In this document: positions 1,045 to 37,726 of the stretch, one piece after another
How positions within the stretch are numbered: position 1 is the stretch's first letter
Layout: each line of letters starts with the position of its first letter
Assembly (NCBI GenBank): GCA_009784665.1
Contig: WRBH01000001.1
Coordinates: 73,267-123,268, forward strand
Reading direction: 5' to 3'
DNA length: 50,002 nt
Origin: Bacillota bacterium
Lineage (GTDB): Bacteria; Bacillota; Clostridia; Christensenellales; UBA1242
Made by a program: the position numbers and the translations under genes
The notes under the pieces: generated by a model
Seen by the model: the letters and a program-made list of their open reading frames with translations, nothing else
Told to the model about the DNA's origin: nothing
Database searches by the model: none

Positions 1045-1442
1045 GTCAGCTCCTTTATTTGTTTTCTTAAATTGGCCACAGGCAGAAACAAGTCAGGGGG
1101 AAAATCCCCCCATCTGTGCCACTCCCAACCCTCGCATTTATGGGGCTCTTTGGTTTCAACAACACCACTGTCTAGTTGAGCGGTCAGGGATATCGTAACA
1201 TAATGCCTGCCAATGCTTTCAAAAAGATCATTGGTTACGCCTGCGACCGAAATATTTTTCAGGGTTATGCCTGCCTCCTCCATTGCCTCGCGTTTGGCAC
1301 ATTCCTCAAAATTCTCACCATATTCTAAATGTCCGCCCGGCGGAGCGTATTCACCATCTCCATGAGCATTTTTCCTTTTTCCTAATAAAATCTCGTCCTT
1401 GTCATTAAATATATAAACAGCTATCCCTATTCTTTGTATCAT
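1023..1442 (-). CDS. Nudix hydrolase (NUDT15/MutT-like)
   Basis: Nudix box GGHLEYGENFEECAKREAMEEAG; EPHKCEGWEW; ATG overlaps upstream TAA. Confidence 0.92.
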   Translation of the reverse strand: MIQRIGIAVYIFNDKDEILLGKRKNAHGDGEYAPPGGHLEYGENFEECAKREAMEEAGITLKNISVAGVTNDLFESIGRHYVTISLTAQLDSGVVETKEPHKCEGWEWHRWGDFPPDLFLPVANLRKQIKELTWKKSSI

Positions 1443-1849
1443 TAAACCCTCCACGATACAACGGTGGCTACTGCCCTTGCACTTGTGAAATTTAGGCGGA
1501 CAGAAATTCGGCCTGCCTCGAATTCATCAAGGTCAACCCGCTGTGGCACAAGAAATCCACTTGTTATGTCAAGGGCCTTTCTTGTATCGCCCTGCGTGAT
1601 TACAAGCTCAACTTCACCCTGTGTATTGAAGCTGGATACCATAAACATATCAAGGCCTGCTTGTGTAATATTAAATGTTCGAGTCAGCCTGCCGTTGACA
1701 CTTGCCGCGGTTATTGTCCAAACCCCGTTGCTCTCGTTGTGGTTTAGGTTACTGGAACTGCCGGAAAATGATGTAGTATAACATCCCGTCAATATAAGAA
1801 CGGGAACAGTTAATACCAAAGCAAACGCTGCAAAAAATAATTTTTTCAT
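1442..1849 (-). CDS. Lipoprotein, beta-rich, unknown function
   Basis: MKK + hydrophobic stretch + LTGC lipobox. Confidence 0.8.
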   Translation of the reverse strand: MKKLFFAAFALVLTVPVLILTGCYTTSFSGSSSNLNHNESNGVWTITAASVNGRLTRTFNITQAGLDMFMVSSFNTQGEVELVITQGDTRKALDITSGFLVPQRVDLDEFEAGRISVRLNFTSARAVATVVSWRV

Positions 1850-1852
1850 ATT

Positions 1853-2797: not shown

Positions 2798-2798
2798 G

Positions 2799-3002: not shown

Positions 3003-3014
3003 TCAAGTTGTTAT

Positions 3015-3323: not shown

Positions 3324-3356
3324 TATTTCCTCCTTAAAGATTTTTAGAATACCCGT

Positions 3357-10001: not shown

Positions 10002-10004
10002 TGC

Positions 10005-11881: not shown

Positions 11882-12712
11882 TCATTCTATCACAATCAAG
11901 TCAAAGAACGCAACAATTCTGTGTCCCTCGAACATCGTTGATATTTCGAACTGGAATTCACGCTCGGTCTCTGCGTCCGGGAAAGTTAATGGAAATAGTT
12001 GTATAAGGGATGGAAAAGTCATTCCCTCTAAAACCTCTTGAACATGGAATAAAGGATTTGGTATTGATTGGCCCAAAACAGTTAATGTAGCATGAAATCT
12101 AAATGTATCACGCCCAGCCAAACGCTCTGCACGATACCGTGTTAGTGGTAAATAGTCTATATTTCTCCAGCCTATTCCGTCTCGTTCCTGTAGGTTCACA
12201 TTCAAAGCTAACATTTCCGGATATGGCATTACGATTATGCGAATTGTGGCTGCCCACCTATCAACTGTTATGACCACAGACACATATCCATCCGGGTCTG
12301 TATCTCTATGGAATCTAGGCAGGTTATTCTCCCCAGTTCGCAAGATTGTCAAAGTTGCTGTATCTCCAGAAGATATCCTTGGTGTTACGGATATAAACTC
12401 AACCGCCGTAGGGCTTGGAACCAGATTTATAGCGTGAGATGTTTGGTTATTTGGAGATGTTGTTATTTGTATAAACTCTCTATGCTCTGGTTGCTGAGGT
12501 GTTTGATTTGGGAACACATGCATTGTTATTACACCGCCGTTTGCTACCCATTGATTGTTTATCCTAAGGCCGTTTGGAGACACGGTTGTATTTGATATAG
12601 CCAAAATTGCCCCTATAACAATAAACAGTAACGCTCCCGCTACAAGCCCTATTACAAGAAATTTGTAATACTTTTTCTGAGAAAAGTTTATTACTTTTTG
12701 ACTGAACCCCAT
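11882..12712 (-). CDS. Membrane-anchored extracytoplasmic protein
   Basis: Basic N-terminus, one TM, beta-rich Lys-free ectodomain. Confidence 0.75.
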   Translation of the reverse strand: MGFSQKVINFSQKKYYKFLVIGLVAGALLFIVIGAILAISNTTVSPNGLRINNQWVANGGVITMHVFPNQTPQQPEHREFIQITTSPNNQTSHAINLVPSPTAVEFISVTPRISSGDTATLTILRTGENNLPRFHRDTDPDGYVSVVITVDRWAATIRIIVMPYPEMLALNVNLQERDGIGWRNIDYLPLTRYRAERLAGRDTFRFHATLTVLGQSIPNPLFHVQEVLEGMTFPSLIQLFPLTFPDAETEREFQFEISTMFEGHRIVAFFDLIVIE

Positions 12713-19257: not shown

Positions 19258-20100
19258 TTAGTGCATTAAATCATGGAAAAAGTAATTAAGTGCGATAACC
19301 ATTAGTGTTCCAGTCATGATAACAACGATCATCCATTTACTTCGGTTTGAGTACTTGTACGCCATAGGCAACATCTCTGTGAATACAACACCAAGAAGGC
19401 ATCCTGCTGCAATCGCGTATGCCATTCCCGCAACAAAAGTATTTATTCCGCCGACGGCATAACCAAGCAATGCTCCAAGAACAGTAGCAAATCCGGCAAT
19501 AGAACAAACTGCAAGAATCTTCCACCATTTTGATCCACCTGCTTTCATAGGAATAGCGATCGACATCCCTTCGGGAACGCAAGACAACCCAATAACAATA
19601 GCGGCAACAATTGATCCAGAAGCTCCAATTGCTAATCCCTTTGGAATATCGTGCAAGATTATTGCAAAGGCAACTGTGAATGCGATTGCGAACATTTTTC
19701 TTCTTTCGGATTTTGAAATTTCGTGCGAGCAGTCCTCGCTGTGTGGTGTTATTCCGTGGACATGTTCATGACCATGTTTGTCAAAAAAGCTAAGTGCAAA
19801 GGCAAGCCCACCACCAATTGCAAGTCCTAGCAGCGTAAACCATATTCCTGCCCCGCCATGCTGGTACCAAACTGGTTCAGGGTACAAGTTCCCATCTGCG
19901 TCGAAACTGTGGTAATGTCCGCGGCCGATAGCATGTGGTACAAAGTCAACAAGTACAAGGGTAGTCAGGACTGCGGCTGCAAATGCAAATGCAAGTCCGA
20001 TTAGCTTTTTACTTGGCTTTTTTATAAACAGGACGATAACTCCTCCGAGGATAGAACTTAGCATTCCTGCAACAAAAGCCATTAGTAATACATTAAGCAT
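19258..20100 (-). CDS. ZIP (GufA-like) metal transporter with atypical transport site
   Basis: 8-TM layout, His-rich loop KHGHEHVH, HDIPKGLAIG and VPEGMSIAIP. Confidence 0.85.
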   Translation of the reverse strand: MLNVLLMAFVAGMLSSILGGVIVLFIKKPSKKLIGLAFAFAAAVLTTLVLVDFVPHAIGRGHYHSFDADGNLYPEPVWYQHGGAGIWFTLLGLAIGGGLAFALSFFDKHGHEHVHGITPHSEDCSHEISKSERRKMFAIAFTVAFAIILHDIPKGLAIGASGSIVAAIVIGLSCVPEGMSIAIPMKAGGSKWWKILAVCSIAGFATVLGALLGYAVGGINTFVAGMAYAIAAGCLLGVVFTEMLPMAYKYSNRSKWMIVVIMTGTLMVIALNYFFHDLMH

Positions 20101-20620
20101 CTACATCCTCCGCGGTGAAAAATAAGTTATAAGTTACTCCGCCAATAGTTATTTGCAGCCTGTATTGTTGTGCATTTGGCTCTTGTTGCATCAGGAATAG
20201 ATTAGCCCGCTGATATGCCGAAGAGGTGTTGTCGGAAACCTCTGGGTTTGCAATGTCTAGAGAAGGAAATGCAGTTACGAAATTAACTCTTTGCCCTGCG
20301 GTTGTTGGGGCGGTATGATAAAGATGGTGATGCCAACCGCCAGTGCTGTTATACGAGGCGTGATTTTCTGATGGGTTAATGTTCGCGACAAGGTTCACAC
20401 CATTAAGTCTTATGGAAACTTGATTGCCAGCAAAAGTCAAACGAGCCTCGGTTATTGGAGAGGTTGTGACCGCTGTTCCTGTCGGATTCTCAACCGAGTT
20501 CCAATTGATTGTAACTCTGTCAAGACTGTAAATTCGTGCTTGGTGCGTCGGTGGCGAGCATGCCACAAGGACGATTGACGCCAAAGCTATCACTGCAACT
20601 AATGAAAATAATTTTTTCAT
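20093..20620 (-). CDS. Lipoprotein of unknown function
   Basis: MKK signal, LVAC lipobox, HHHLYH cluster; coupled to the ZIP gene. Confidence 0.8.
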   Translation of the reverse strand: MKKLFSLVAVIALASIVLVACSPPTHQARIYSLDRVTINWNSVENPTGTAVTTSPITEARLTFAGNQVSIRLNGVNLVANINPSENHASYNSTGGWHHHLYHTAPTTAGQRVNFVTAFPSLDIANPEVSDNTSSAYQRANLFLMQQEPNAQQYRLQITIGGVTYNLFFTAEDVDA

Positions 20621-20687
20621 ATTTAATTATATAAAACAAAATATAAAAACACAATACTATTTCGTTGCGTTTGTAATGACGGCGATA

Positions 20688-21035: not shown

Positions 21036-21058
21036 TTAATTAAAGATTATCATATTAC

Positions 21059-21814
21059 ATGGCAAAAGTAAAAGATGAAAAGACAGATGCAGAGTTACTG
21101 CATGGTCGGCGGGAAAAGTTGCGACAAAACTTTGACAAATTAGGGCTTCAATCATTTCATGATTCACATGTATTAGAGTATGCACTAGGATTTTGCGTGC
21201 CCCGAGTCGACACGCATCCAACCGCACATAGGTTGCTTGAAACATTTGGCAGCTTGGCTAATGTGGTTGACGCACATCCGAGCAAACTGGAAAAAGTTCC
21301 TGGAATGGGCAAGAATTCGGCATATTTGATTGCCTTTTTGCGACAATTTGTAACTTATTATATGGGGTCAAAAACAAAGCAGGATAGAATCTCCACCAGT
21401 GCGGATGCCATAGAGCACCTGCGAGAATTCATGAAAACCCTGGGTGTGGAGGAGTTCGTTCTAATGGCCTTGAATAAAAATGGAAAAGTATTACTGGAAA
21501 AAAAGGTGGAAGGAACTTTGAATCGTGTAAATATTGACCTGCGTGATGTAATGGATATGGTTTTACGGGTTAAAGCAAGTGCGGTGGTTTTAGCACATAA
21601 TCACCCCGAAGACACACCTGACCCTTCGGATAGTGATGTGTTGTTTACAAGGGCGATGGTGAACCTGTTGACCCCATTGGGGATTCAGTTGGTTGATCAT
21701 CTAATCTTTTCAAGAACAGACGATGTATACAGTTTCAGAGAATCGAAATTTTTAGAGTTATTTATCAATGAGCATAAAGAATTTGCGAGGAATCGAAATT
21801 TTGCGTATACTTGA
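21059..21814 (+). CDS. radC: RadC/JAB domain protein
   Basis: HGRREKLRQNF, HhH VPGMG, AHNHP...PSDSD, LVDHLI. Confidence 0.92.
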   Translation: MAKVKDEKTDAELLHGRREKLRQNFDKLGLQSFHDSHVLEYALGFCVPRVDTHPTAHRLLETFGSLANVVDAHPSKLEKVPGMGKNSAYLIAFLRQFVTYYMGSKTKQDRISTSADAIEHLREFMKTLGVEEFVLMALNKNGKVLLEKKVEGTLNRVNIDLRDVMDMVLRVKASAVVLAHNHPEDTPDPSDSDVLFTRAMVNLLTPLGIQLVDHLIFSRTDDVYSFRESKFLELFINEHKEFARNRNFAYT

Positions 21815-21817
21815 TTT

Positions 21818-22588
21818 ATGATAAAAAAATTAGCTATTACAATATGTGTGCTAGTTACAATGATAATTCCTGGAACTGTATTAACAGGGTGCGAAGGAAT
21901 TGGCATTGCCGTTACACCATGGGATGTGCGGATAGACGGAGAATATCTCAGATGGGAAACAACAGGGGGTGGAATAACCCCAGGTGGTGGACACATGACC
22001 CGAATCCATCATGTTCGTGCCCAAATGCCGGGGCTGACCCTTTATACCCAGGTGACAATGGGAACATCTATCAACCTAAGAGATCCTTTTTGGGGTTGGC
22101 ACAGAGAGCGTTCGGAGATAACTTGGGGTGCTGGAGGATGGGAAAATTTGCCCATCGACCAAGATGTTATATTTTCGGTATGGGCACACGAGACAATATA
22201 TAGACCCAGGCAACATACGCTTTATCGCGAAAGTTCCTGGTCAGAAGCTGTTATATGGACAGAAGAACAAAGACAACTTCCTGTGCCAGAGATTACATCA
22301 ATGTCGGGCGATACTCTCTGGTGGATATCAACAGGCAGCGGATCCTGGCGTACATATGCAATTAGGGCAAAAATAAATGGAAACTCTTTTTATTCCATCC
22401 AGTTCGGGTGGGGGTTAAGTGGAACAAACTTGTGGGCAACATCATGGTGGGATTCACCAACTTGGGGAAGTAATTGGATTCTGCTACCCCCTGGAAACGC
22501 TGAAGTATCAATACGCTCACAAGACGAATTACACCAAGAGATTATCAGAACCAGCAACTGGTCAGAGCCCGTCATCTGGGAGAGGTAG
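21818..22588 (+). CDS. Trp-rich lipoprotein with two related beta domains
   Basis: LTGC lipobox; SSWSEAVIW / SNWSEPVIW repeats. Confidence 0.75.
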   Translation: MIKKLAITICVLVTMIIPGTVLTGCEGIGIAVTPWDVRIDGEYLRWETTGGGITPGGGHMTRIHHVRAQMPGLTLYTQVTMGTSINLRDPFWGWHRERSEITWGAGGWENLPIDQDVIFSVWAHETIYRPRQHTLYRESSWSEAVIWTEEQRQLPVPEITSMSGDTLWWISTGSGSWRTYAIRAKINGNSFYSIQFGWGLSGTNLWATSWWDSPTWGSNWILLPPGNAEVSIRSQDELHQEIIRTSNWSEPVIWER

Positions 22589-23797
22589 CAGTTCGGGTTG
22601 TTCGTATTTGACAATTCTAGGCTTGCCTTTGTAGTGAGATTTTCGGATAAACCTTGAATCGACAAGCTCTCCATTTTTGTAAATATCAATATAAGTCCGT
22701 GCCGAGCGTGGCGGATAACCATAGTCAAGTACTATTTCTTCCCCATCTTGGATTATTCCTCCCTGTACTTCAACGGATTGAGTATGGATGGTTCGTTCCA
22801 CCCTGGGCTTGTATTCATGGGTACGAGGTGCTCCATAAATTCTTACGACAGCTTGATTTCGCCTTCCGTGGTCAATAACGCGGGCTTCTATATATATGGC
22901 CTCACCTGTAGTATTCTTGAACTCTAAGTCTGCTTGCGACGACACCATTGCGTCAAGGCCAAGGGGAACATAGTTGATCGGTAGGCTGTGGTTATGGCTC
23001 TCGATAATTCGCAAGCCCGATAATAGCACAGCGTTGAAGAGGGTGGTGCTTGCTTGACAAACGCCACCGCCTACCCCGTCGACGAATTCGCCATCAAGAA
23101 TTATTTTTGCGGTGGCATAGCCTCTGTCACGAGTCCTTTTTCCCACAATGTCATTAAAGGAAATTGTTTCGTTTGCATTTACGACCAGGCCATCAAAGAC
23201 TTCTAGTGCTAAAGTTATATTGTTTTCGCGGGGGGCATTGTCGATGAAGGTGGTCGAGTATTGGCTGCGAACTGTTATTCGCTCTAGAATCACATTGGGA
23301 TCTATAGGCTGCGTGTCGCGAACGATTGCCACGATTTGTCTTGGTTCGCGTCGCCCCAGTGTCCCTATGATCTCGGCACATAATCTTTCAATATCTAACT
23401 CTCTTCCATGGCTTTGTTCTGTGACCCAGAATTTTTCCTCGCTGTCAGGATTAAAATTTACTTTTCCGTTGTTGATAGGTTTATTGACGGATGCTCCAAC
23501 CTTCTTCACAATTGGCCACAGCTCTGGGAACGATGTTTGGAATGTCTCGTGAATTGCCTCGTTGGTTCTACCCTCCCACATTGCTTGCAGTTCGTTTGCC
23601 CGTTGATACAGGCTTCTACCTTTTACAAAGCTTTCTCTACTGGCAGTATCCCACCAATTTGATTTTATTGTTTTATTTGTGACAATTATAACATTTTCTT
23701 CATAGTAAATGGAGAACAAAACCTGCTGGGGTTCGGAAAAACCAAACAATGGAATGATAATGAATAAGGCAAGGGTCGCAACAAAAATTCGTTTCAT
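22562..23797 (-). CDS. VanW family protein
   Basis: SFNDIVGKRT, GVGGGVCQASTTLFNAVL, HSLPINYVPLGLDAMV. Confidence 0.92.
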   Translation of the reverse strand: MKRIFVATLALFIIIPLFGFSEPQQVLFSIYYEENVIIVTNKTIKSNWWDTASRESFVKGRSLYQRANELQAMWEGRTNEAIHETFQTSFPELWPIVKKVGASVNKPINNGKVNFNPDSEEKFWVTEQSHGRELDIERLCAEIIGTLGRREPRQIVAIVRDTQPIDPNVILERITVRSQYSTTFIDNAPRENNITLALEVFDGLVVNANETISFNDIVGKRTRDRGYATAKIILDGEFVDGVGGGVCQASTTLFNAVLLSGLRIIESHNHSLPINYVPLGLDAMVSSQADLEFKNTTGEAIYIEARVIDHGRRNQAVVRIYGAPRTHEYKPRVERTIHTQSVEVQGGIIQDGEEIVLDYGYPPRSARTYIDIYKNGELVDSRFIRKSHYKGKPRIVKYEQPELLPLPDDGL

Positions 23798-23828
23798 AGC
23801 AGTAGTTTGTGTCAATAATGGTTTTAGT

Positions 23829-24290
23829 ATGTTCAAGTTATGTGTATTTGTTTCGGTGTGTGCGTCATTAGTATTTTATCATTTTGTAACGCTTGATAAC
23901 CCACAGCTAGAAGTTTTAGGCAGTGGCACAATCCAAATATTTTCCAGAGAACGGATCGAGAGCCCCCTAATTTTGAACAGACAGGATTTAGGCTTCGCAT
24001 TGGCCTACACAGTAAGCAGTAATAACGCCCCCTTTCTCCGTCAAAAATTCAGCGTAATTGATGGAGAGTCTATAACCCTAGATTGGTTTCAATCGCCCCA
24101 GAAAATTCTGCAAGCATTGGGACATGAATATATGTTCAGCCAAAGAATGGGTGATTTACAAACAATATACGCCTATTCAGGTCGTGGGCGAGATTTTGTG
24201 GCTAGAGGTCGCGAGCGGGTTAACCTGCAAATCGCAGTAAGGGGTGGTCGGGTTACAGTAGGATGGCCAGTAATACTTGGCAGTTTCTAG
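23829..24290 (+). CDS. YwmB-like protein
   Basis: N-terminal TM; IYAYS...VNLQIAVR...VTVGWPVILGSF C-terminus. Confidence 0.7.
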   Translation: MFKLCVFVSVCASLVFYHFVTLDNPQLEVLGSGTIQIFSRERIESPLILNRQDLGFALAYTVSSNNAPFLRQKFSVIDGESITLDWFQSPQKILQALGHEYMFSQRMGDLQTIYAYSGRGRDFVARGRERVNLQIAVRGGRVTVGWPVILGSF

Positions 24291-24330
24291 ACTAATCCAG
24301 CCTTCGTCATGATTTAGGGTGAAGGGATAC

Positions 24331-24906
24331 TTACAAATTTCCAACTGTTTTATTGTAGCCCGACTTGTCTGCGTTGAAAATTTCAATGCCAGTTTTTTCG
24401 ATATGATCTAGGCGATAAGCATCATCCAATTCATTAGCGGTCAAGAACTTTACATGAATTTGGTCGCCCATCAGGAAATCTCGTGCCAAGTCAGGCACAT
24501 CAAAATGTTTACGGATTCGGGCATTGATTTGCTTGGCTTGGCCCACATAATATTTGCTCTTGGTTTGATTAAATATAATATAAATCCCAACTCCGCCTTT
24601 GTCGGCACTAGACAAAATTGCATTTAGGGACTTCCACTCTTTTTGATCAATTTGGGATTTAAGTTTTTCCTTCAACTGTTCTTTTGTTTGTTTGAAGGTT
24701 TCTAGTTTAGATTTTTGTTCTTCTTTTTTTAATAACTTTACTCGGGCGACTTCATCAGCTTCTTGTTTTTGTGCTTTAACATAATCAACAAGAACATCAA
24801 TATCTTTTGGTTGGATTTCTGTGGAGCTTTTTTGTCGTAGGTACACAAAAAGCAATGCCGCAACGAATAGAACAAAAATTCCAATACTAACATAAATAGC
24901 CCACAT
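24331..24906 (-). CDS. Membrane-anchored GIY-YIG nuclease
   Basis: TM, coiled coil, GIYIIFN..KYYVGQA..RIRKH..E..GYN. Confidence 0.85.
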   Translation of the reverse strand: MWAIYVSIGIFVLFVAALLFVYLRQKSSTEIQPKDIDVLVDYVKAQKQEADEVARVKLLKKEEQKSKLETFKQTKEQLKEKLKSQIDQKEWKSLNAILSSADKGGVGIYIIFNQTKSKYYVGQAKQINARIRKHFDVPDLARDFLMGDQIHVKFLTANELDDAYRLDHIEKTGIEIFNADKSGYNKTVGNL

Positions 24907-24980
24907 GCGTATATCGTATCATGGAAAATGTAATTTGACAAATATAGGCGAGTAAGAAATTCAGAAGAAAGGAGGTAACT

Positions 24981-25307
24981 ATGGAAGCAGCGGAAATAAT
25001 TATGGTGGTGATTGCAGGATTATTTTTAGCCTTAGGTCTATTTATGCTAACGGGAAAAGGTGAAATGCTTGTGGCGGGATATAATGCATCAAAGCGGATG
25101 CAAGAAAAATACGATGGCAAAAAGTTGAGCAGGCTTTGTGGTGTAATGTTGATTGTAGTTGCGTTGGCAATAGGGTTGCTGGCACTTGAGTTTGCGGTGT
25201 TTGAAACGGATTGTCTTGTGTGGGCTGTGGTGGCTGCAGTCATAATTGGAGTGATTGTCACATCTGTGATTGGCATGACCGCAAAAACATTTCGAAGGCA
25301 AAATTAA
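24981..25307 (+). CDS. DUF3784-like small membrane protein
   Basis: GKGEMLVAGYN...KYDGKKLSR; 3 TM; AAGGAGG SD. Confidence 0.8.
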   Translation: MEAAEIIMVVIAGLFLALGLFMLTGKGEMLVAGYNASKRMQEKYDGKKLSRLCGVMLIVVALAIGLLALEFAVFETDCLVWAVVAAVIIGVIVTSVIGMTAKTFRRQN

Positions 25308-25330
25308 AAAAGGGCACCCGCCCTTTTTTG
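25306..25330. terminator. Bidirectional intrinsic terminator
   Basis: AAAAAAGGGC-ACCC-GCCCTTTTTT between convergent genes. Confidence 0.9.
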
Positions 25331-25336
25331 TTTGGT

Positions 25337-26128
25337 TTAGATTCCTTGTGAAACTTTGACGCCAGGGCCCATAGATGATGCCAGGGTTACGGATTTCAGG
25401 AATGTTCCTTTTGCTGCACTTGGCTTTGATTTAATAATTGCAGCAATGATTGCGGCATAGTTCTCTGCCAGTTTTTGTGTGCCGAAAGATGCTTTTCCAA
25501 TCAGGACATGGACATTGTTTCCCTTGTCCAGACGATATTCAACTTTACCGCCCTTCGCGTCGGTAACTGCTTTTTTGATATCGGTTGTAACCGTCCCGCT
25601 CTTTGGATTAGGCATTAAACCTTTTGGACCAAGAATCTTTGCAACACGACCAACGATACCCATCATGTCAGGTGTAGTGATACAAACATCAAAGTCTAGC
25701 CAGTTTTGGGATGTGATTTTTGTGATGATATCCTCTGCTCCGACATGGTCGGCACCGGCCTTTTTAGCCTCATCTTGTTTTTCAGGTTTACAGATTACAA
25801 GAACTTTCAAGGTCTTCCCTGTCCCGTGTGGCAGGACAACGGTACCACGAACCTGTTGATCCGCTTGACGACCGTCAACACCTAGGCGTACATGCAGTTC
25901 GACGGATTCATCAAACTTTGCGGTTGCACCCTTGATGACCAGGTCAAGTGCCTCGTCCACTGGGTGAAGCTTGGTTTTATCGAATTCCAGCTTTGCACGA
26001 CGCTCTTTTCGCTCGAAAGGCTTTGGGGCTTTCTTAGGAGCTGGTGCCTTTGCCGCAGGAGTTGCTTCTTTTTTTGCGACAGGTTTCTTTTCAGCTTTCA
26101 CTTCTTCTTTTTTAACTTTTTCACTCAT
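25337..26128 (-). CDS. rplA: 50S ribosomal protein L1 with N-terminal extension
   Basis: [37 protein letters not shown]. Confidence 0.98.
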
Positions 26129-26140
26129 AAATCACCCTCC

Positions 26141-26569
26141 TTACGCGTCTACGACAACGACGCCCATGCTTCGTGCCGCACCTTCAACCATACGCATAGC
26201 AGCCTCAAGACTTGCTGCGTTCATATCAACCATCTTCATCTTGGCAATTGCCTCGATTTGGGCACGCGTGATCTTGCCCACTTTGTCTGTGTTTGGCTTT
26301 TTTGAACCAGACGCCAGGCCCAGTTCCTTTTTGATCAGAACCGCCGTTGGAGGGGTCTTGATCTCGAAATCAAACGAACGGTCACCGTAAATGGTAACAA
26401 CGACAGGGATGATCAGCCCTGCATCTTTCGCCGTTGCGTCGTTAAATCCTTTAACGAACATTGGTATGTTAATACCGTGCGGACCAAGGGTCGAACCAAC
26501 CGGTGGTGCTGGTGTCGCCTTGCCCGCTTCTATCTGCAGTTTAACCTGAGCCTTGATAGGTTTACTCAT
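26141..26569 (-). CDS. rplK: 50S ribosomal protein L11
   Basis: [22 protein letters not shown]. Confidence 0.98.
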
Positions 26570-26588
26570 GGCAATATTCTCCTCTTAA

Positions 26589-26618
26589 GCGGTTCAAACG
26601 GAACGGCGTTCCTCCCGC
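26589..26618 (-). promoter_or_regulatory. L1-binding leader hairpin of rplK-rplA
   Basis: GCGG-GAG-GAAC..GTTC..-CCGC stem with asymmetric GAG loop just upstream of the rplK SD. Confidence 0.65.
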
Positions 26619-26656
26619 GAGTTATGGGTAGTATAGCACAAACAAAAAGGACTTGT

Positions 26657-27202
26657 CTAGTCCCTTTTTTCTTTACCTTTGAATATTGTTGAAAGAATGC
26701 TTTTCTTTTTAGGTGGTTGCTTTTTCCGCGCCCTCATCTTTTCCATATATTCTTTCTTTAGGTGATCTTTGGCTTCTTGAAAGGCGTGTTGTCTCACTTC
26801 GTCCATGTCAAGTTCAACTATTTCTTCGTCTTCCAGTCCTAGATCTTCTAGACCAAGTTCATCTAGAATTCGGGTTGGCAGCTTCACCGTGTCGCTGATA
26901 TTGAAAGAACCCTCGACTTGTGTAAAGTTGTAATCGACTACACGGTCGACGCCCAGCTGCTCGGCAGTTAAATATTCTAGATCATGGTCGATGTCGCTGA
27001 CCTCTCGGCAGAAAAATTCGAGATTGTACACGCGCTCGTGTCCAAGTACATTATTTATCTTGTCTAGCCTGACTTTTTGCCTATCCACCTCTAGCTCGGT
27101 AACAGGCCGGGAGATATACCTACTGGTTTCATTCAATGGGCAGTGCACCTCGTAGTTTACATATGCGTAAGTTGTTTGTTCGATTCCTTCAAAGTAGCTC
27201 AT
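26657..27202 (-). CDS. Hypothetical acidic protein with basic C-terminal tail
   Basis: TTGACA-17-TATGAT-5-ATG; 181-aa ORF. Confidence 0.75.
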   Translation of the reverse strand: MSYFEGIEQTTYAYVNYEVHCPLNETSRYISRPVTELEVDRQKVRLDKINNVLGHERVYNLEFFCREVSDIDHDLEYLTAEQLGVDRVVDYNFTQVEGSFNISDTVKLPTRILDELGLEDLGLEDEEIVELDMDEVRQHAFQEAKDHLKKEYMEKMRARKKQPPKKKSILSTIFKGKEKRD

Positions 27203-27248
27203 GGTAAATCATACCACGAAGCAGCCACTTTGTCAATACAGCATAGAC

Positions 27249-27707
27249 TTATCTTGAGAGCAATCGCTCACGCTTCTTTTTTCGCTCTTGGTATTCTGCT
27301 TCCAGCTTTGCAAGTTGTAATTCGTTAAGTGTCGAGGACTTAACATACTTTTTCATGTCCATCATATCTTGCAGGGTTATTTTGTCTTTTTGTAGCTTTT
27401 CGCGAATAGCTTCGTAGCTGTGCATATATTCCTCGATTATTTCGTGGAATGAGAGGCCTGTTGTGGTTGCCAGAACATGCCAATAAAATAACATCTCGCC
27501 CAGAATTTCACTCATACGGACTTGTCGCTCGGGACTATATTGTTGCTCGCCAAAGCCAACACCTGCGATTATCTCATTAGCATGACCTGTGGTTTTACTT
27601 AGCCCTAGTCCTCCGTAGTTAAGTGCGTTCTGCAGGGTAAAATCCGTTTCTTTCAAGAATCGTCCAACTAAATCTTCCAAAGACTCCATGGTGTTCATTG
27701 ATGCCAT
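27249..27707 (-). CDS. MazG-like fold protein, degenerate active site
   Basis: YGGLGL...G.ANEII and EILGEMLFYWHVLATTTGLSFHEII match the layout of MazG-like NTP pyrophosphatases. Confidence 0.55.
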   Translation of the reverse strand: MASMNTMESLEDLVGRFLKETDFTLQNALNYGGLGLSKTTGHANEIIAGVGFGEQQYSPERQVRMSEILGEMLFYWHVLATTTGLSFHEIIEEYMHSYEAIREKLQKDKITLQDMMDMKKYVKSSTLNELQLAKLEAEYQERKKKRERLLSR

Positions 27708-27713
27708 GCTTCA

Positions 27714-28469
27714 CTATACTACGAACAGTGCAATTATGGCAATCACTATTAGGTAGAGGCTGAACCAATATAGTTTTATCCTTTTTATTATATCCATCAT
27801 GAATTTAATCGCGAAGATTCCTGATACAAGGGCGGTAATGAATGCGATGGACAGAGGAAGCCATCCAATTGAATTAATTGATATGGGATGACGGATTAAC
27901 TCCCATACTAATGCGGCAACGATGATGGGAATAGACATCAGGAACGCGAACTCGGCGGCCTTTTCCTTTTGTACTCCACTGGCCATTGCTGCACTGATGG
28001 TAAAGCCACTTCGTGAAAACCCGGGAATAACCGCCAAGCCTTGTGCCAGGCCTGTGGCTGCCGCCGATTGGTAATTAATTTCTCCTCCTTGTTTTTTTAT
28101 AAACGAGATACTAAACAAAACTATTGCTGTTATTATGAATGTTATGGGCAGAACACGCGCCGCAAATGTGGATTCTATCCAGTCATTGAATATTAATACA
28201 AATCCAACCGTAATAGCGGTGGCAATGATAAGGGATACATTTGTTTTGAAGTTCTCAATCGGGTGGCGGACAAGTTGAAATATTTTCTTGTGAAAAACAA
28301 ATAAAACTGCAATAAGGGTAGCAACATGCAGCATTATGTTGAAGAACATCATGTCGTCGGGCATGTTAAAAACATGTTGGACAAGGATAAGGTGACCGCT
28401 GCTGGACACTGGCAGAAATTCGGCCAGACCCTGGACAAGGCCAAGGAAAATCGCAAGTATGATTGGCAT
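27714..28469 (-). CDS. uppP: Undecaprenyl-diphosphatase
   Basis: QGLAEFLPVSSSGHL, PGFSRSGFTI, FAFLMSIP. Confidence 0.96.
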   Translation of the reverse strand: MPIILAIFLGLVQGLAEFLPVSSSGHLILVQHVFNMPDDMMFFNIMLHVATLIAVLFVFHKKIFQLVRHPIENFKTNVSLIIATAITVGFVLIFNDWIESTFAARVLPITFIITAIVLFSISFIKKQGGEINYQSAAATGLAQGLAVIPGFSRSGFTISAAMASGVQKEKAAEFAFLMSIPIIVAALVWELIRHPISINSIGWLPLSIAFITALVSGIFAIKFMMDIIKRIKLYWFSLYLIVIAIIALFVV

Positions 28470-28524
28470 GTTATATCATATGTAAAAAGATTTGTGTTTA
28501 TGGATTTTTGGGCTACAATAGATC

Positions 28525-30189
28525 ATGGCATCTGCAAGACGCGTTATTAACATATTCGCCTTGACCTTAATTGGATTGGTCGTTGCCATTGCAGGTGTTG
28601 TTGCTGTGATTATATTTTGGCCGTCCGATTGGACATTCCTAGGTATTGGCGGTGTAAATGAACGAGGTGTTTGGACACGGTTTGATTCTGACGAAGTTGC
28701 GGATGCTCTGGCACATAGAAACCTTATAATCCACAGCCGTCATACCCCTGTCGAGGTTCGTGTGCGAAAATTTGAACAGCTGGATGTCCAGGATAATCGT
28801 GGCACAATCTTGGCCTTTGAGAATGCAAGAGGGTTAACTTTTAACCAAATCCATCGAACACACATCTATCTGACTGAAACATTGGTGGATGGGGAGCTAT
28901 TCTTTAAAATTTATATCACTGCTCCAACTGGCATTGTTACACGAGATTCTCGTGTTGTCATTAATCTTGTTTCTGATGAGGACGAGTTCACGGGGCAACC
29001 ATATAATTTTATTCTGGATACTGGCATTCATCCTGTATCGTTCCGTGCCGATCAAGAAGTTGAACATATTGCAATTGACGAGTTAACACTTTTAAGTGGC
29101 ACTATAGGGCATGTCAGCTTTCCTACCCCGCCTACGCAAGCTTTTCCATTCCACATCAGTCTTAATCGATTACTTGTTCATTCGACTCGTGCCAGTGTTA
29201 ATATTCCAACAAATGTCCGTGAAGAGGTCTTGATTACCAGTCCTATTGGTCATGTAACTATTGGCTCGGTAGGGATTGACGGAGGGGCACAAGGTGTTGT
29301 GAATGTTCCTGGATCGAGGGAAATGAACTTATCTCTCGGAACAGTTTTTGGCGATATTAATTTTGATGCTGCTACTGGTTCACTTCGGGTTACGGGTCAA
29401 AGTTACGGTGTGACAGGCAATGTAGATATGAGGACAAATCTAGCTAGTCTTAACGCCACCCGAATCCAAGAGCGTCTTGATTTTTTCAGTAACACAGCAT
29501 CCGGTGTTACTATTGGCAGAACTGATGGCGAGGTGAATGCCGAGTTTGCGTCTGCGGGCTCGATGGTAATTACAAACAGCTATAACAATGTGACGGTTCT
29601 GTCACGCTCGGCGAATTTAACGATTGGTGGAACGGGGGCTCAACAAGGTGCCAGAGGTCCTGTTGACATTAACAACCGATATGGTTGGACAGCGGTTAAC
29701 TTTGCAAGAGATGTTCTGAATTATGGCGAGCCGACGCTGGATTTCGCAGGGTTTGATGGAAATATCACTGCAACGCGGATTGTTGGCGTGACGACTGTGA
29801 CCGTTGGCGAATTACAGCGAAATGGTCGTGCGGTGATTAATTTATCATTTATCCAAGTTAGGGGTGTTAATAATGTGATTTTTCATGGTTCAACTCCACC
29901 AGGGTCAGAATTTGGTAGGGTCACCGTAACCTTGCTCACCCGTTTAGCAAATGATCCAGCGGGCCCATTTGATGCATTTGACTTTCATGCAATTCACACC
30001 GCAGGAGCAAGGGACTTTACGGGGTGGCCTGTTCTTGGCAATACTGGCAACACAACAATCGGAGTCGAAATCCCGAACTGGAATGCTCAGCCAGGAGGTA
30101 TGGCGTGGCCAGTTCGTGAAGGAAACTCTACTCGGGTTCTGCGTATCGAGACATCAAACACTGTTGTTCTCCGTGCCGCGAGATTGTAG
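28525..30189 (+). CDS. Membrane-anchored beta-solenoid/adhesin-like surface protein
   Basis: Single N-terminal TM; repetitive G/T/N/V beta strands (DUF4097-like pattern). Confidence 0.7.
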   Translation: MASARRVINIFALTLIGLVVAIAGVVAVIIFWPSDWTFLGIGGVNERGVWTRFDSDEVADALAHRNLIIHSRHTPVEVRVRKFEQLDVQDNRGTILAFENARGLTFNQIHRTHIYLTETLVDGELFFKIYITAPTGIVTRDSRVVINLVSDEDEFTGQPYNFILDTGIHPVSFRADQEVEHIAIDELTLLSGTIGHVSFPTPPTQAFPFHISLNRLLVHSTRASVNIPTNVREEVLITSPIGHVTIGSVGIDGGAQGVVNVPGSREMNLSLGTVFGDINFDAATGSLRVTGQSYGVTGNVDMRTNLASLNATRIQERLDFFSNTASGVTIGRTDGEVNAEFASAGSMVITNSYNNVTVLSRSANLTIGGTGAQQGARGPVDINNRYGWTAVNFARDVLNYGEPTLDFAGFDGNITATRIVGVTTVTVGELQRNGRAVINLSFIQVRGVNNVIFHGSTPPGSEFGRVTVTLLTRLANDPAGPFDAFDFHAIHTAGARDFTGWPVLGNTGNTTIGVEIPNWNAQPGGMAWPVREGNSTRVLRIETSNTVVLRAARL

Positions 30190-30997: not shown

Positions 30998-32263
30998 CTA
31001 CTTCTCCTTCTTCTTCGCTCGGCTCTTGAAATATTTAGAGTGGGGATTGATAGTTATTACATCTCCGTCAACGGTTACAGATTCTTTTTCTTTTTTTCGT
31101 TTATCTTGCCACTTGATTAATTTTTCTACAAGAAAGTTCATCGCAAATGATATCCCCGTCATAAACAATGCCCCCGCACTGATGTAAATCGCAAGTGCGG
31201 CGGTGGTGGTCATAGTGAAAACAACCATGATGACAGGCAAGATAAACTTCATCATTTTTGTCGCAGATGCGGGGTCGATAGAAGGTAGTTTCTCCGCCTC
31301 TCCACTCGACGAGGTATTTTTAACTTTCCGGATTGAATATCCAACCTCGGCTTCCTTTTTCGCAGGTTGGTTAACCTTGGTGGATTGCATGACCTTGGCA
31401 TTTATCAACATGCTTAGGTATGTTGCCCCTGCTGCGAATAGGATTAGGAATAACATACCGTTCCATCCTCTACCTGTTTGGTCGATTCCATTTTCTCGGT
31501 TGAATATATCGTTATAGATTCCCTCCATCCGCTCTAGTTGTGGTTGGTTTTGGCTTCCCCATCCATCAATACTGTTTGTTGCACTTCTGAATTGGCTCCA
31601 CGAAAGAGTTCGGTTAGCCCATGTATCAGGTCTCCACATGCTGTGAACCCACAGAAACCCTGTGCGAGTAGCGTTATACTCGGCATTAATTGCCTCTTGG
31701 AAAGTAATTGAAACGGGATTTCCATTTTCATCAAGCCATTGATTTCCGTGAACATCTACCATCATATCGCCTAAAACATACTCGCCATTAACTAGGGTAC
31801 GATGGTGTTCATGAACAGCATATAGTCTGTGGAACTGATAGCTGACATTATGATTCGATATTCCGTTCAGCGCTTGGAAAACCGAAAAGAAAATAATCAT
31901 CATTATGGCCATATTCAGAATCTGGAATAAACAAAATCCAGCCATTCCACCACCATGTTTTTTAAAGAGTGCTTGTTGAGCTCGCTGCTTTCCCAGGGGG
32001 TCACCTGCATAGGCTTCGGCAATTGCGTCTTGTTCAGGTTTCATTGCTGCCATTCGGATAGAGTTCTTTTTTGTAAAATACTTGACCCCAAAATCAAGCG
32101 GGATCATCACCAGTCGCAGTAACAATGTGAAGATAATAATTGCAACGGCATAGCTGCCTATTCCGTTGTACAGCCATTCGACGACACTAAAGACCGCTCC
32201 TCGGATTCCAAGGAACCCACTTGGTCCATCTGGGAATTGCACAGTGCTAAGCAAATCGAACAT
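30998..32263 (-). CDS. yidC: Membrane protein insertase YidC
   Basis: AIIIFTLLLRLVMIPL, FLWVHSMWRPD, AALAIY; position after rnpA-yidD. Confidence 0.9.
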   Translation of the reverse strand: MFDLLSTVQFPDGPSGFLGIRGAVFSVVEWLYNGIGSYAVAIIIFTLLLRLVMIPLDFGVKYFTKKNSIRMAAMKPEQDAIAEAYAGDPLGKQRAQQALFKKHGGGMAGFCLFQILNMAIMMIIFFSVFQALNGISNHNVSYQFHRLYAVHEHHRTLVNGEYVLGDMMVDVHGNQWLDENGNPVSITFQEAINAEYNATRTGFLWVHSMWRPDTWANRTLSWSQFRSATNSIDGWGSQNQPQLERMEGIYNDIFNRENGIDQTGRGWNGMLFLILFAAGATYLSMLINAKVMQSTKVNQPAKKEAEVGYSIRKVKNTSSSGEAEKLPSIDPASATKMMKFILPVIMVVFTMTTTAALAIYISAGALFMTGISFAMNFLVEKLIKWQDKRKKEKESVTVDGDVITINPHSKYFKSRAKKKEK

Positions 32264-34656: not shown

Positions 34657-34664
34657 CTATTGGT

Positions 34665-36029
34665 ATGGATATTAACGAGGTCTGGAAAAACGCCCAAAGA
34701 AAGATAGCGGACAAGGTTAGTTCGATTTCTTTTGATTTATGGATTAAAACCCTTGAGGTAGACAGCTTTGCAGACGGAGAGTTTATTCTGGTTGCACACA
34801 GCAGTGCCGCAAAACAAATGGCGTTGAATGACAGGCATTATCCACATATAGATTTGCAACTGAGAGAATTTGCACCAATTATTGAAAAAGTTACAATAAT
34901 TGATGCACTAGAGCGGGAGCAAAAACAAGCCGAGGCAATAAGAGAGGCCAGCGGGTTCAAGCAAGAGGTTGAAATTCCAAAGAAAAACGCTCCCCTGTCG
35001 TTTACAACCGTAAATCCTACAAAAACATTTAAGAGTTTCGTTGTAGGAAAGTCGAACGAGTTCGTCGCCGCTGCGGCCGAGGCAGTTGCAAAGAACCCAG
35101 GTAAAAAAATTAATCCTTTGTTCATATATGGTGGCAGCGGGCTTGGGAAAACGCATCTACTTAACGCTATCGCAAACGAAATCCAATGGGGGCATCCACA
35201 ACTAAGGGTTGCACTTGCAACATGTGAAAAGTTCACAAACGATTATGTAGAGGCCTTGCGTAATAAAACAGTCAGTTCCTTCAGAGCGGCGTACAGAGAT
35301 ATCGATGTCCTGCTGATCGATGACATCCAATTTATCGAAAACAAAGTCAGCACTCAAGAAGAATTCTTCCATACATTTAACGATTTGACACAAAACGGTC
35401 GACAAGTTGTTTTGGCATCCGACAGGCATGCAGATAAATTGACAACTCTGGAAGGTCGGATGCGAAGTAGGTTCAAGTCAGGGTTAATACAAGATATTAC
35501 CAGTCCCGATGTAGAAATGCGAATTGCAATCCTAGAGAAAAAGGCCCAAGAGGAAAACAATAAGCTGCCCAGTGATGTTGTTGGGTATCTTGCCCAAAAG
35601 GCGTGTGATGCCGACATGAATGTGCGGGAAATGGAAGCGATATTGTTGAAAGTTCTTTTCTTTGCGGAATTGAAGCGCCGAGATATTCCAACCCTCGATG
35701 ATTGTGTAGAGGCGTTAAAAGACATGCAAGAAGATATCGAGAGTCAAACAACTGCCGCCACAATACTAGATAAAGTTTGCAGATACTTTAATATTGATTT
35801 GGAAGAGATAATGGGCAAGCGGCGAAATCGCGAGTTCGTAGAACCTCGCATGGTCGCCATTTATCTCATTTGCGAGGTTTTAAACATTCCTCTTGTTAAT
35901 ATCGGACAATTATTAGGGGGTCGTGATCATACCACAATCATGCACAGCCGTAATAAAATTGCGTCTCAACTGAAAACCGACGCTCGTATGAAGAGAATTA
36001 TCGAAGACTTAACTAAAATGATCAGTTAA
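34665..36029 (+). CDS. dnaA: Chromosomal replication initiator DnaA
   Basis: NPLFIYGGSGLGKTHL, LLIDDIQF, TQEEFFHTFN, GGRDHTT. Confidence 0.98.
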   Translation: MDINEVWKNAQRKIADKVSSISFDLWIKTLEVDSFADGEFILVAHSSAAKQMALNDRHYPHIDLQLREFAPIIEKVTIIDALEREQKQAEAIREASGFKQEVEIPKKNAPLSFTTVNPTKTFKSFVVGKSNEFVAAAAEAVAKNPGKKINPLFIYGGSGLGKTHLLNAIANEIQWGHPQLRVALATCEKFTNDYVEALRNKTVSSFRAAYRDIDVLLIDDIQFIENKVSTQEEFFHTFNDLTQNGRQVVLASDRHADKLTTLEGRMRSRFKSGLIQDITSPDVEMRIAILEKKAQEENNKLPSDVVGYLAQKACDADMNVREMEAILLKVLFFAELKRRDIPTLDDCVEALKDMQEDIESQTTAATILDKVCRYFNIDLEEIMGKRRNREFVEPRMVAIYLICEVLNIPLVNIGQLLGGRDHTTIMHSRNKIASQLKTDARMKRIIEDLTKMIS

Positions 36030-37726
36030 GGTGTAGTTACACCAAGTAAGATATCTCTTAATACCTTGACGGTGACGGCAACACCTGGAGCGTCGGGCAG
36101 ATAAACACCAGGAATTGTTCCAAGTGCGTAAGTAAGTTCAAGTTCATCCAAGAGGTCTTCTATTTGCTCCAGGACAAGCGGGCCTATGACTTCACTCTCT
36201 AGAAGTGCGGAAATAAGCTCTCCCCCTGTGTCAAAGATGATATAAATTATGTCCTCTAACCCTTCTGCATTTTGGAAATATGCAACAATCCGGATGGACG
36301 CACGAATTGCACGCAGGTCTGCCGTCCAATCAAATGTGTTATGCTCGGGGTCTTTCAAGTTATTAACCAAGTTCTCGACGACTTGTGGCGTGCTTGGCCC
36401 CATAACATCTGCCTCCAGGACAGCTTCTTCCAGCAACTCTGCGATAAATGTACGGATACTCATACGGAATCCAAGGGTATTCGTAACGGTATTAAGGATT
36501 CCACCCAAAGTATCTATTGTTGTGTCATTCAAGTCAGCAATAGCATCTAGGGCATTTTCGGCATCGACAATGCCAGTTATATCTTGCCATGTGCCATTAG
36601 TGAAGATGTCTTGGGCAATTCCAATGATATTAAGGATATCGTTAAGTACGGTTTGTGCGGTCAAGTTACGAAGGTCCTGCAAGATTGCCTCAGTACTGAC
36701 AGGAAGGGCATACTCCTCCAACAGGTCGGAATCTGCGATGAATGTCGCGAAGTCGTCCATAGCAGACATCAGAAGTTGAACAAGAGAAATCTCAAACACT
36801 CGCTCCACTATACCAGGCAAGGCTTCCCAGTAGGGTTCAAACTCTGGGCTGGCCAAGACATCTGCAAAGTCTTCATCTTCGAATTGTTGGCTTATCACCG
36901 CGAAATCTTTGTATAGGTGCATGCCGCGGATTACATCTTGTCGAAGGTTAATATTCGGCATACCCCTTGGTGTGCGGACGCGTGTGATATAGTCAAACAT
37001 TGGCCCAGACGCCCACTGCATGCCAGTGAATCTTGTCATTATTCCGTATGGGCTGCGTTGAAGTTGGTTATCGAAATCATGGACGAACTCCAGGACGGCG
37101 TGATCTTCTATTTGGGCTGTCGCCTCGGTAAAGCTTGGCTCGTATCTTGTTACTGAACCAGCCATGGTCAATATACCATTGACAGGAATCATTACAAGGA
37201 AGAATATCAACAGCCCCTGTCCTAGGCCGACCAATGCTCCCAGCCACCTGTGCCTTTTTGTCGGACGCATTTCGAACTTTGCCATACCGTTTGCTGTACG
37301 GTCACCTGTGTTAGACTTTACATTTTTTGGTGCGACTTTTCCTGCGAATATCGCGTAAACAATCCAGGTAATGAAACGGAATATATATAGAAGGGCGACG
37401 AAAACCAAAAGGCTGATAATTGCAATCGGCAGTGCACTGATAAATGCATCTAATTGCGTAAAATTCGCGGCCGCGTCTGCCGCTTCACCGCCCATGGCAT
37501 TCAACAAATGTTCACTCATGGTATAGCCCCCGAACCGAATTCCGCCGAAAGGGTTTGCGATAACTGGGGCCAGTAAAACCGCCAGCGGAATCGCGAATAA
37601 AAATGTTACAAGGCGGAATGCGGATCGCTTGAACCCACGGATTGCACCCCACAGTACCCCAAAGAAAATACCCAGCATTAACAAGCCAAACAACGACCAA
37701 GTTACAATTGTCATTACTGTATCCAT
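36026..37726 (-). CDS. CvpA-like membrane protein with large acidic helical ectodomain
   Basis: WGAIRGFKR and RWLGALVGLGQG CvpA-type motifs, then about 380 aa acidic domain. Confidence 0.7.
   Translation of the reverse strand: MDTVMTIVTWSLFGLLMLGIFFGVLWGAIRGFKRSAFRLVTFLFAIPLAVLLAPVIANPFGGIRFGGYTMSEHLLNAMGGEAADAAANFTQLDAFISALPIAIISLLVFVALLYIFRFITWIVYAIFAGKVAPKNVKSNTGDRTANGMAKFEMRPTKRHRWLGALVGLGQGLLIFFLVMIPVNGILTMAGSVTRYEPSFTEATAQIEDHAVLEFVHDFDNQLQRSPYGIMTRFTGMQWASGPMFDYITRVRTPRGMPNINLRQDVIRGMHLYKDFAVISQQFEDEDFADVLASPEFEPYWEALPGIVERVFEISLVQLLMSAMDDFATFIADSDLLEEYALPVSTEAILQDLRNLTAQTVLNDILNIIGIAQDIFTNGTWQDITGIVDAENALDAIADLNDTTIDTLGGILNTVTNTLGFRMSIRTFIAELLEEAVLEADVMGPSTPQVVENLVNNLKDPEHNTFDWTADLRAIRASIRIVAYFQNAEGLEDIIYIIFDTGGELISALLESEVIGPLVLEQIEDLLDELELTYALGTIPGVYLPDAPGVAVTVKVLRDILLGVTTP

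Follow-up and report, generated by a model that had tools for sequence, protein, structure and literature searches.

In M-protease, alkaline adaptation involved fewer Asp, Glu and lysine (Lys, K) residues and more arginine (Arg, R), His, Asn and Gln (Shirai et al. 1997, as given in an excerpt of the review PMC8153356), and more Arg is the consensus change in alkaline proteases, cellulases and mannanases (excerpt of PMC3059134). At the level of the secretome, Sec substrates of Escherichia coli and Bacillus subtilis favour Lys over Arg, a preference that is apparently reversed in the alkaliphile B. halodurans (Allen et al. 2022, excerpt of PMC9110029). Lysine deserts are described from ubiquitin/proteasome components, toxins and pupylating Actinobacteria, where they shield cytosolic proteins from Lys-directed tagging (PMC13696103; PMC10665810); the text of the 2026 lysine-desert review contains neither the word "extracellular" nor "secreted". 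Here we describe the almost Lys-free outside-facing proteome of a genus of Clostridia, seen in a stretch of 50,002 nucleotides (the window, G000:C1:73267-123268) and throughout the genome it comes from. This genome, G000, is an assembly of 1.09 Mb in 53 contigs with 44% G+C, estimated to be ~77% complete.

The inside/outside contrast is clear over the whole genome. Counting domains of at least 80 residues, our own classifier separates 98 exported domains from 609 cytoplasmic proteins, and the median Lys content of the two sets is 1.06% and 7.53%, respectively (Mann-Whitney p = 3.8e-37). This is the genome-wide difference that the initial annotation, made on the window, had named as its check. 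Pooled, Lys makes up 640 of 35,852 exported residues (1.79%) and 12,382 of 163,555 cytoplasmic ones (7.57%), while Arg is 6.18% and 5.34%, respectively, and the K/R ratio is 0.29 in exported parts versus 1.42 in cytoplasmic proteins. Less than 2% Lys is found in 62 of the 98 exported domains, in 19 of the 609 cytoplasmic proteins and in two of 16 proteins with a predicted N-out/C-in orientation. The split by class follows the side of the membrane: the 651 proteins that lack hydrophobic segments and the 23 N-out/C-in proteins have pooled Lys contents of 7.6% and 7.67% (Arg 5.3% and 5.5%), versus 1.83% for the 49 lipoproteins and 1.79% for the 60 N-in/C-out proteins (Arg 6.2% in both).

Genes were called by a codon-usage score in our own gene caller (1037 genes in G000), and topology was assigned by our own classifier from three features only: a run of hydrophobic, uncharged residues at the N-terminus, a lipobox, and the balance of charges on either side of the run (n-region). 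Composition was counted from 15 residues past the hydrophobic run, so that the Lys used in the classification are left out of the counts. The classifier is crude, and the cytoplasmic proteins that it wrongly counts as exported weaken the contrast and do not create it. Starts were finally chosen by scanning all in-frame starts. Two other start choices were dropped: one based on the ribosome-binding site cut off signal peptides, so that exported proteins landed in the cytoplasmic class, and with one based on the longest open reading frame (ORF), EF-G, LepA-like and Rossmann-fold proteins were taken for exported ones. In this genome, starts guided by the ribosome-binding site often lose genuine signal peptides, and many exported genes begin at the first ATG of the ORF. 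Orienting proteins with several transmembrane (TM) segments by Arg alone was also dropped, as Arg is common on the outside in this genus. A crude, unsupervised split of proteins into a K-low and a K-high side lends weak support to the contrast: the K-low side has less than 1% Lys in 21 of 57 G000 proteins versus none of 11 in G019 and G024, two relatives from other genera.

The contrast also exists within single polypeptides. Of the 560 residues in the n-regions of Lys-poor exported proteins, 139 are K (24.8%) and 64 are R, while K makes up ~0.6% of their mature parts; thus, Lys is not avoided where the same chains face the cytoplasm. That the cytoplasmic parts of these proteins are Lys-rich had been claimed before and holds for the n-regions as well as for YidC (Table 1). 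The G+C content at third codon positions (GC3) is lower in exported parts, 0.394, than in cytoplasmic genes, 0.443, which favours AAA and AAG, so the loss of Lys is not a matter of base composition; AGA and AGG make up 45% of the Arg codons outside and 41% inside. GC content was rightly discarded as the cause by the initial annotation, and GC3 together with the contrast within proteins supports its proposal of selection on the exposed proteome.

The Lys-poor proteins with the greatest length are typical of the surface and secreted proteins of vegetative cells. Among 17 scanned, 13 have a Pfam match and four have none. The matches include three subtilases, a weak trypsin-like domain (E = 7e-4) together with an F5/8-C domain, an M64 peptidase with BspA-type leucine-rich repeats, an alkaline phosphatase, two RCC1-repeat proteins, proteins with LRR_5 and Listeria-Bacteroides repeats, a weak rotamase match and a class B penicillin-binding protein (PBP). 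The most extreme single case is an anchored protein of 3848 residues with Listeria-Bacteroides repeats and BspA-type leucine-rich repeats (G000:C3:19335-30881), in which the part beyond the anchor contains 6 K and 219 R. Lys-free runs long enough for a lysine desert (at least 150 residues or at least 50% of the protein) occur in the ectodomain of the window protein at 11882 (221 residues) and in an amidase on another contig (C18:11268-12326, 352 residues).

The trait is restricted to one genus. A genome search found 40 relatives, and 62-229 kb were taken from each of eight and run through the identical pipeline. Four of these (G001-G004) belong to the same genus as G000, and four (G006, G016, G019 and G024) to other genera of the same family. 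Exported K and R are 3.66% and 4.62% in G001 (11 domains), 3.89% and 5.53% in G002 (12 domains), 3.80% and 5.42% in G003 (7 domains) and 1.06% and 6.09% in G004 (9 domains), values inflated by a few evident false positives and by Lys-rich sporulation-type proteins. Single surface proteins in these four genomes have 1 K and 33 R in 687 residues, 0 K and 41 R in 834 residues, and 6 K and 29 R in 703 residues. In the other genera, exported K and R are 5.98% and 4.25% (G006), 7.75% and 2.19% (G019), 6.94% and 1.94% (G016) and 6.69% and 2.04% (G024). A Lys-poor exported proteome is therefore found in all five members of the genus and in none of the four sampled outsiders, and Lys depletion is a derived trait of the genus. 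As the same pipeline gives normal Lys in the four outsiders, it is not the source of the trait. A depletion shared with relatives from unrelated neutral-pH habitats had been named as the result that would speak against adaptation; it is absent in these four, whose habitats are not established. G006 combines raised Arg with normal Lys. Among cytoplasmic proteins, Lys is 8.06% in the genus and 9.45% in the four outgroups, and Arg 5.33% and 4.39%; this slight deficit and excess could come from G+C content or from a mildly raised cytoplasmic pH.

A class B PBP with Transpeptidase, PBP_dimer and PASTA domains (C9:16954-18867) was recovered from 30 genomes and allows the same protein to be followed across the genus border. 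Its ectodomain of ~600 residues has 11-16 K, 39-48 R and 25-29 F in the five genus members, versus 25-57 K, 12-31 R and 13-26 F in the 25 other genomes. At 27 alignment columns with K in both nearest outgroups, the 135 cells of the genus members contain K 52 times and R 45 times, and in Tyr columns F takes up 23 of their 115 cells. Six columns are K in all five genus members, and five of these six are K in 16-25 of the 25 others. K300, in an S-T-F-K stretch, and K494, in K-T-G, are invariant in a separate alignment of ten PBP sequences; we take both to be PBP active-site motifs.

Homologues of this PBP were also retrieved from a collection of 5.8 billion proteins, and 69 of the 120 best clusters were tabulated. 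Among these 69, nineteen clusters have a K/(K+R) of 0.19-0.32, namely P0001-P0017 (62-100% identity) and P0039 and P0042 (58-59%). Clusters P0018-P0029, at ~60% identity, are intermediate (0.39-0.59), and the remaining clusters range over 0.5-0.76. The intermediate group, together with G006, suggests that the trait varies by degrees instead of being simply present or absent. The source names of the homologues include Christensenellaceae and Clostridia metagenome-assembled genomes. In named genome records, where the genus itself is not among the matches listed, 67 of the 80 loci listed have a usable ORF; K/(K+R) is 0.43-0.86 and none is near the genus. The only cultured alkaliphile among the matches listed, Halalkalibacter alkalisediminis, has 0.48, versus 0.19-0.30 in the genus.

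Not all exported proteins have lost Lys, and the exceptions are informative. Families of the Lys-rich exported proteins were assigned by Pfam and NCBIfam, and the best matches are a SpoIVB peptidase (S55), a PdaA-like delta-lactam deacetylase, a fragment of a GerxC spore-germination lipoprotein, an S11 D-Ala-D-Ala carboxypeptidase, a Peptidase_M23 protein, VanW, a calcineurin-like phosphoesterase, a class A PBP and two proteins without a family. The Peptidase_M23 gene adjoins the gene of the PdaA-like deacetylase. In Bacillus, SpoIVB, PdaA and the Ger proteins are located in the forespore intermembrane space, in the cortex or at the inner spore membrane, so they have passed a membrane without being exposed to the medium. 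Spo0A is present in G000; SpoIIP was not found in G000, and the sole SpoIID match lies within an endolysin-like protein (on contig C48, see below). Comparable K-rich exported proteins are also found in G001 and G002. The initial annotation had singled out VanW in the window as a likely sporulation-associated exception, which agrees with its retained Lys and with the several sporulation-type families in the Lys-rich exported set.

The opposite case also exists. The amidase at G000:C18:11268-12326 (Amidase_3 and PG_binding_1) lacks a signal peptide and has 0 K and 30 R in 352 residues, and a protein with three PG_binding_1 domains at G000:C48:621-2555, also without a signal peptide, has 3 K and 47 R in 644 residues. 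Both match PHROGs endolysin families. Together, the Lys-rich sporulation-type exports and the Lys-poor, signal-less endolysins indicate that the loss of Lys tracks exposure to the medium and not Sec export. Flagellin, sought as an exposed protein independent of Sec, was not found in G000. Contigs C45 and C48 are short and look phage-like, with no virion genes identified on them. A scan of viral contigs with the Lys-free amidase found two distant loci (33-34% identity) with ORFs of ordinary Lys content and was uninformative.

Lys content was also proposed as a topology predictor, and it does indicate exposure: in an earlier, comparable list, most low-K proteins filed as cytoplasmic are truncated exported proteins or lytic enzymes. 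Some of them had lost their start through the start picker or a contig end, and the others are cell-wall lytic enzymes.

Within the window, all seven Lys counts of the initial annotation were reproduced by translating its ORFs. The seven Lys-poor items pooled have 7 K in 1787 residues (0.39%), with a binomial P = 3e-44 at the 6.8% Lys of exported proteins from the out-of-genus relatives. The coordinates are collected in Table 1, together with the VanW-domain protein and two contrast cases, for one of which (24331..24906) the C-terminus is probably cytoplasmic. The loop between TM2 and TM3 of YidC (30998-32263) is ~139 residues long. We presume this to be much longer than in other Gram-positive YidC proteins.

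Table 1. Proteins of the window with their Lys (K) and Arg (R) counts (positions in the window; aa, residues).
Feature	Position	Strand	Lys and Arg content
Lipoprotein	1442..1849	-	K-rich n-region (starts MKK); mature 112 aa: 1 K, 8 R
N-terminally anchored protein	11882..12712	-	ectodomain 221 aa: 0 K, 16 R; all 4 K in cytoplasmic tail
Lipoprotein	20093..20620	-	mature 154 aa: 0 K, 7 R
Lipoprotein	21818..22588	+	mature 231 aa: 1 K, 16 R
VanW-domain protein, signal or anchor	22562..23836	-	Lys-retaining exception: 17 K, 29 R in 375 aa
Contrast case, N-terminal TM	24331..24906	-	167 aa after TM: 25 K, 5 R; classifier: one internal TM segment
N-anchored surface protein, 554 aa	28525..30189	+	whole protein: 2 K, 39 R
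YidC	30998..32263	-	outer loop aa 129-267: 0 K, 9 R; all 28 K outside loop, in cytoplasmic loops and tail
4-TM protein	36026..37726	-	first 190 aa: 6 K; C-terminal 376 aa: 3 K, 16 R
Contrast case, N-out/C-in single-TM protein	42027..42704	+	C-terminal 178 aa: 26 K, 7 R

Other residues shift along with Lys. The comparison sets 47,024 residues of exported parts from the five genus genomes against 16,988 from the four outgroups; protein families are mixed, and as exported gene families differ among genomes the pooled compositions are not strictly like for like. Exported K and R are 2.10% and 5.98% in the genus versus 6.79% and 2.29% in the outgroups. In percentage points, K changes by -4.69, R by +3.69, H by +1.53, W by +1.05, F by +1.00 and Q by +0.83, while Y falls by 2.55, E by 1.57, D by 1.27, N by 0.81 and C by 0.67. 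The cytoplasmic shifts are smaller (K -1.39, R +0.94, D -0.13, E +0.05, all others within ~1 point). The falling residues include Lys, Tyr and Cys, the side chains that titrate between about pH 8 and 11, and those that rise are Arg, which is always charged, and His, Gln, Trp and Phe, which are neutral at high pH.

We suggest, as the explanation that is rather more probable than the others together, that the medium-exposed proteome was recoded from Lys to Arg across the genus, driven by high external pH. In such a scenario, the outside-facing protein parts of these ~1-Mb spore-forming Clostridia of termite-gut metagenomes would have been recoded, with Lys purged nearly everywhere save at catalytically indispensable positions and with Arg as the commonest single replacement. 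The decreases in Asp, Glu, Tyr and Cys and the increases in His, Gln, Trp and Phe are smaller co-shifts. The composition pattern, its limitation to exposed parts and to the genus, and the termite-gut label are shown by the data, whereas pH as the selective agent is an inference. Normal, high Lys is kept in cytoplasmic proteins, loops, tails and signal-peptide n-regions, and in the exported sporulation-type proteins, which probably work in the enclosed forespore/cortex compartment. The most likely cause would be a very alkaline habitat, namely those parts of the hindgut of higher termites that are alkaline. At about pH 10.5 and higher, the Lys side chain is uncharged and a reactive nucleophile, Arg is still protonated, and Tyr and Cys are ionised. 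Since Lys, Tyr and Cys titrate at high pH, selection would favour Arg-based salt bridges and fewer groups titrating at pH 8-11. Of the causes offered by the initial annotation, high external pH fits best, since it explains the co-shifts of Asp, Glu, Tyr, Cys, His and Gln; Lys-directed proteases and amine-reactive chemistry stay in play as the alternatives weighed below.

The habitat is consistent with this suggestion. Positions 20001-30000 of the window are almost complete in two sequencing runs from two studies, both labelled termite gut metagenome, one of which may be the source of the assembly; there was no RNA dataset among the runs matching this part. In higher termites, P1 is described as a highly alkaline section of the hindgut in which Firmicutes dominate (excerpts of PMC7024585 and PMC4660790). 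A more specific version, that the genus made its exposed proteome essentially Lys-free for hindgut compartments of pH ~11-12 and did so without the classical antiporter toolkit, is a tentative proposal that may or may not hold. A V-type ATPase operon with a 166-residue, double-hairpin K subunit is present in G000 (G000:C17:7433-16662), and no F-type c subunit was found in this genome.

Several findings weigh against high external pH. The only indication of pH or compartment for the organism is the metagenome label "termite gut". In a search that covered NhaC, CPA-type and MnhG antiporters, NhaC (PF03553) and the CPA-type Na_H_Exchanger (PF00999) were each found in none of the five genus genomes, and the Mrp subunit MnhG (PF03334) was not found in G000, which is 77% complete. 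Among 24 other genomes of this reduced-genome family, NhaC is found in none and CPA in one, while in 16 other families of the order NhaC is found in eight and CPA in 15. The drop in Tyr is large only versus G016 and G024 (5.5-6.0% Y) and modest versus the nearest outgroups, G006 and G019 (3.4-3.8%). Asn is prone to deamidation in alkali; it makes up 6.7% of the exported parts and is not reduced, as the raw change of -0.81 becomes +0.23 net of the cytoplasmic difference. Nor are the exported parts more acidic, with Asp and Glu together at 9.3-12.1% in the genus versus 12.2-13.6% outside it, so the acidic-surface part of the alkaliphile analogy drawn in the initial annotation is not seen. The sporulation families are best NCBIfam matches under the curated cut-offs. 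The class A PBP (Transgly and Transpeptidase domains; G000:C34:1285-3579), the only one found, has 46 K in an ectodomain of 664 residues and is Lys-rich in all five genus genomes (45-71 K); it is either sporulation-specific or an unexplained exception. Finally, the proteome-wide spectrum of substitutions between orthologues sets 81 cytoplasmic pairs against only three exported ones and is a trend at most: K is retained at 26% of 57 exported versus 44.5% of 1825 cytoplasmic positions, and replaced by R at 31.6% versus 12.2%.

An alternative cause is that Lys is avoided since it is under attack, either at its epsilon-amine by glycation or by amine-reactive electrophiles such as quinones and aldehydes from lignin or humus oxidation, or by a Lys-specific protease, be it from the host, from neighbours or from the bacterium's own genes, with alkalinity at most an aggravating factor. 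The loss of Lys far exceeds that of any other residue, its positive charge is kept as Arg, and Cys, also a nucleophile, is depleted; however, His, Trp and Met, which also react with quinones or oxidants, go up in the exported parts. Self-protection is conceivable, as many secreted peptidases are encoded (three subtilases, a weak trypsin-like match and M64 among the 17 largest Lys-poor proteins scanned), but the trypsin-like match is weak (E = 7e-4), no Lys-specific protease was identified, and Arg at about three times the outgroup level would make the exposed proteins more sensitive to ordinary trypsin-type proteases. The exposure rule, with sporulation-type proteins spared and endolysins affected, suits any external hazard equally, while the falls in Asp, Glu and Tyr are predicted neither by amine chemistry nor by a Lys-specific protease and belong to the published alkaline signature. 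We consider attack on the amine unlikely as the cause by itself; it may act jointly with pH, as high pH makes Lys a better nucleophile.

It is less probable still, and in our view doubtful, that the shift is an effect of Sec transport. As published work proposes, Lys would be deprotonated while passing SecY and re-protonated outside, acting as a ratchet; with an alkaline outside this benefit would be gone, and Lys would drift to Arg owing to the energetics of secretion and not to how the proteins function outside. The Lys preference of Sec substrates is lost, and apparently reversed, in B. halodurans according to the excerpt of PMC9110029, and the model would likewise let sporulation proteins keep their Lys if the intermembrane space to which they are exported is not alkaline. 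However, a lost advantage predicts drift to the cytoplasmic K/R and not to ~1% Lys with only conserved, apparently catalytic Lys left. Arg is called a slow residue in Sec transport in the same excerpt (PMC9110029), yet it is up to 6%, and the two signal-less endolysin-like proteins are just as Lys-free or Lys-poor. The shifts in Tyr, Cys, Asp and Glu are also unexplained by transport, and an alkaline outside is still needed.

That no selection is involved, and that base composition, foreign surface genes or faults in gene calling and topology created the pattern, is very improbable and already largely refuted: the home-made predictor does misfile proteins and the exported families do differ by genome, but the identical pipeline gives 6.0-7.8% exported Lys in the four out-of-genus relatives, GC3 is lower and not higher in exported parts, and the contrast is present within single proteins and in one orthologue across 30 genomes.

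The genus provides a natural recoding experiment, in which hundreds of proteins reveal which lysines are replaceable, mostly by Arg, and which are not, and from which a rule set for alkali-stable subtilases, phosphatases and cell-wall enzymes could be taken. Low Lys is a marker of exposure that needs no prediction software: it flags truncated exported genes and signal-less lytic enzymes, helps the annotation of orphan genes in this lineage, and splits sporulation-type from vegetative surface proteins. If recoding by high external pH is correct, Lys density would be a sequence-only barcode of the place where a protein works, i.e., the cytoplasm and forespore compartment or the open medium. The K/(K+R) of the exoproteome would then be a "pH meter" readable from any metagenome-assembled genome of uncultured organisms, and the graded values in the PBP (0.2, ~0.45 and ~0.6) would place lineages in gut compartments. 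The view that Arg limits secretion would likewise be put in doubt by Sec substrates so rich in Arg. The data bear on the published Sec model, in which Arg is rate-limiting for transport.

Among the top literature matches, we found none for an exoproteome with ~1% Lys, for exempt sporulation-compartment proteins or for a case in gut Clostridia (subscription journals and supplements were outside the scope of the search). The closest relatives of the pattern are the secreted enzymes of alkaliphilic Bacillus, such as M-protease and alkaline cellulases. As in these, Lys, Asp and Glu are down and Arg, His and Gln are up in the genus, and the rationale, that the charge of Arg persists at high pH, is common to both. 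However, those are moderate shifts in single enzymes, while here, as far as can be known from sequence alone, the whole exposed proteome is affected and Lys is at ~1%. The increase in Asn of M-protease is absent, and the genus consists of uncultured, reduced-genome gut Clostridia and not of soil or soda-lake Bacillus. As in B. halodurans, secreted proteins favour Arg over Lys relative to cytoplasmic ones at the level of the proteome (excerpt of PMC9110029); but where that excerpt blames transport, in the genus lytic enzymes independent of Sec are biased and sporulation-type proteins are exempt.

The long Lys-free stretches under selection, with Arg in place of Lys, are like lysine deserts. They differ in that those of the genus lie outside the membrane, the cytosol being rich in Lys; a Pup ligase was looked for in G000 and not found. 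Alkaliphilic B. pseudofirmus reportedly has acidic cell-surface polymers and an S-layer (SlpA). It would share with the genus a high-pH adaptation specific to the surface, as we propose it here, but B. pseudofirmus relies on an excess of negative charge while Asp and Glu in the exposed parts are lower in the genus than in its relatives. The kind of adaptation is already known, as Lys-to-Arg changes in single enzymes and as a trend in the secretome of one alkaliphile; new are its extent, the sharp compartment boundary and the lineage.

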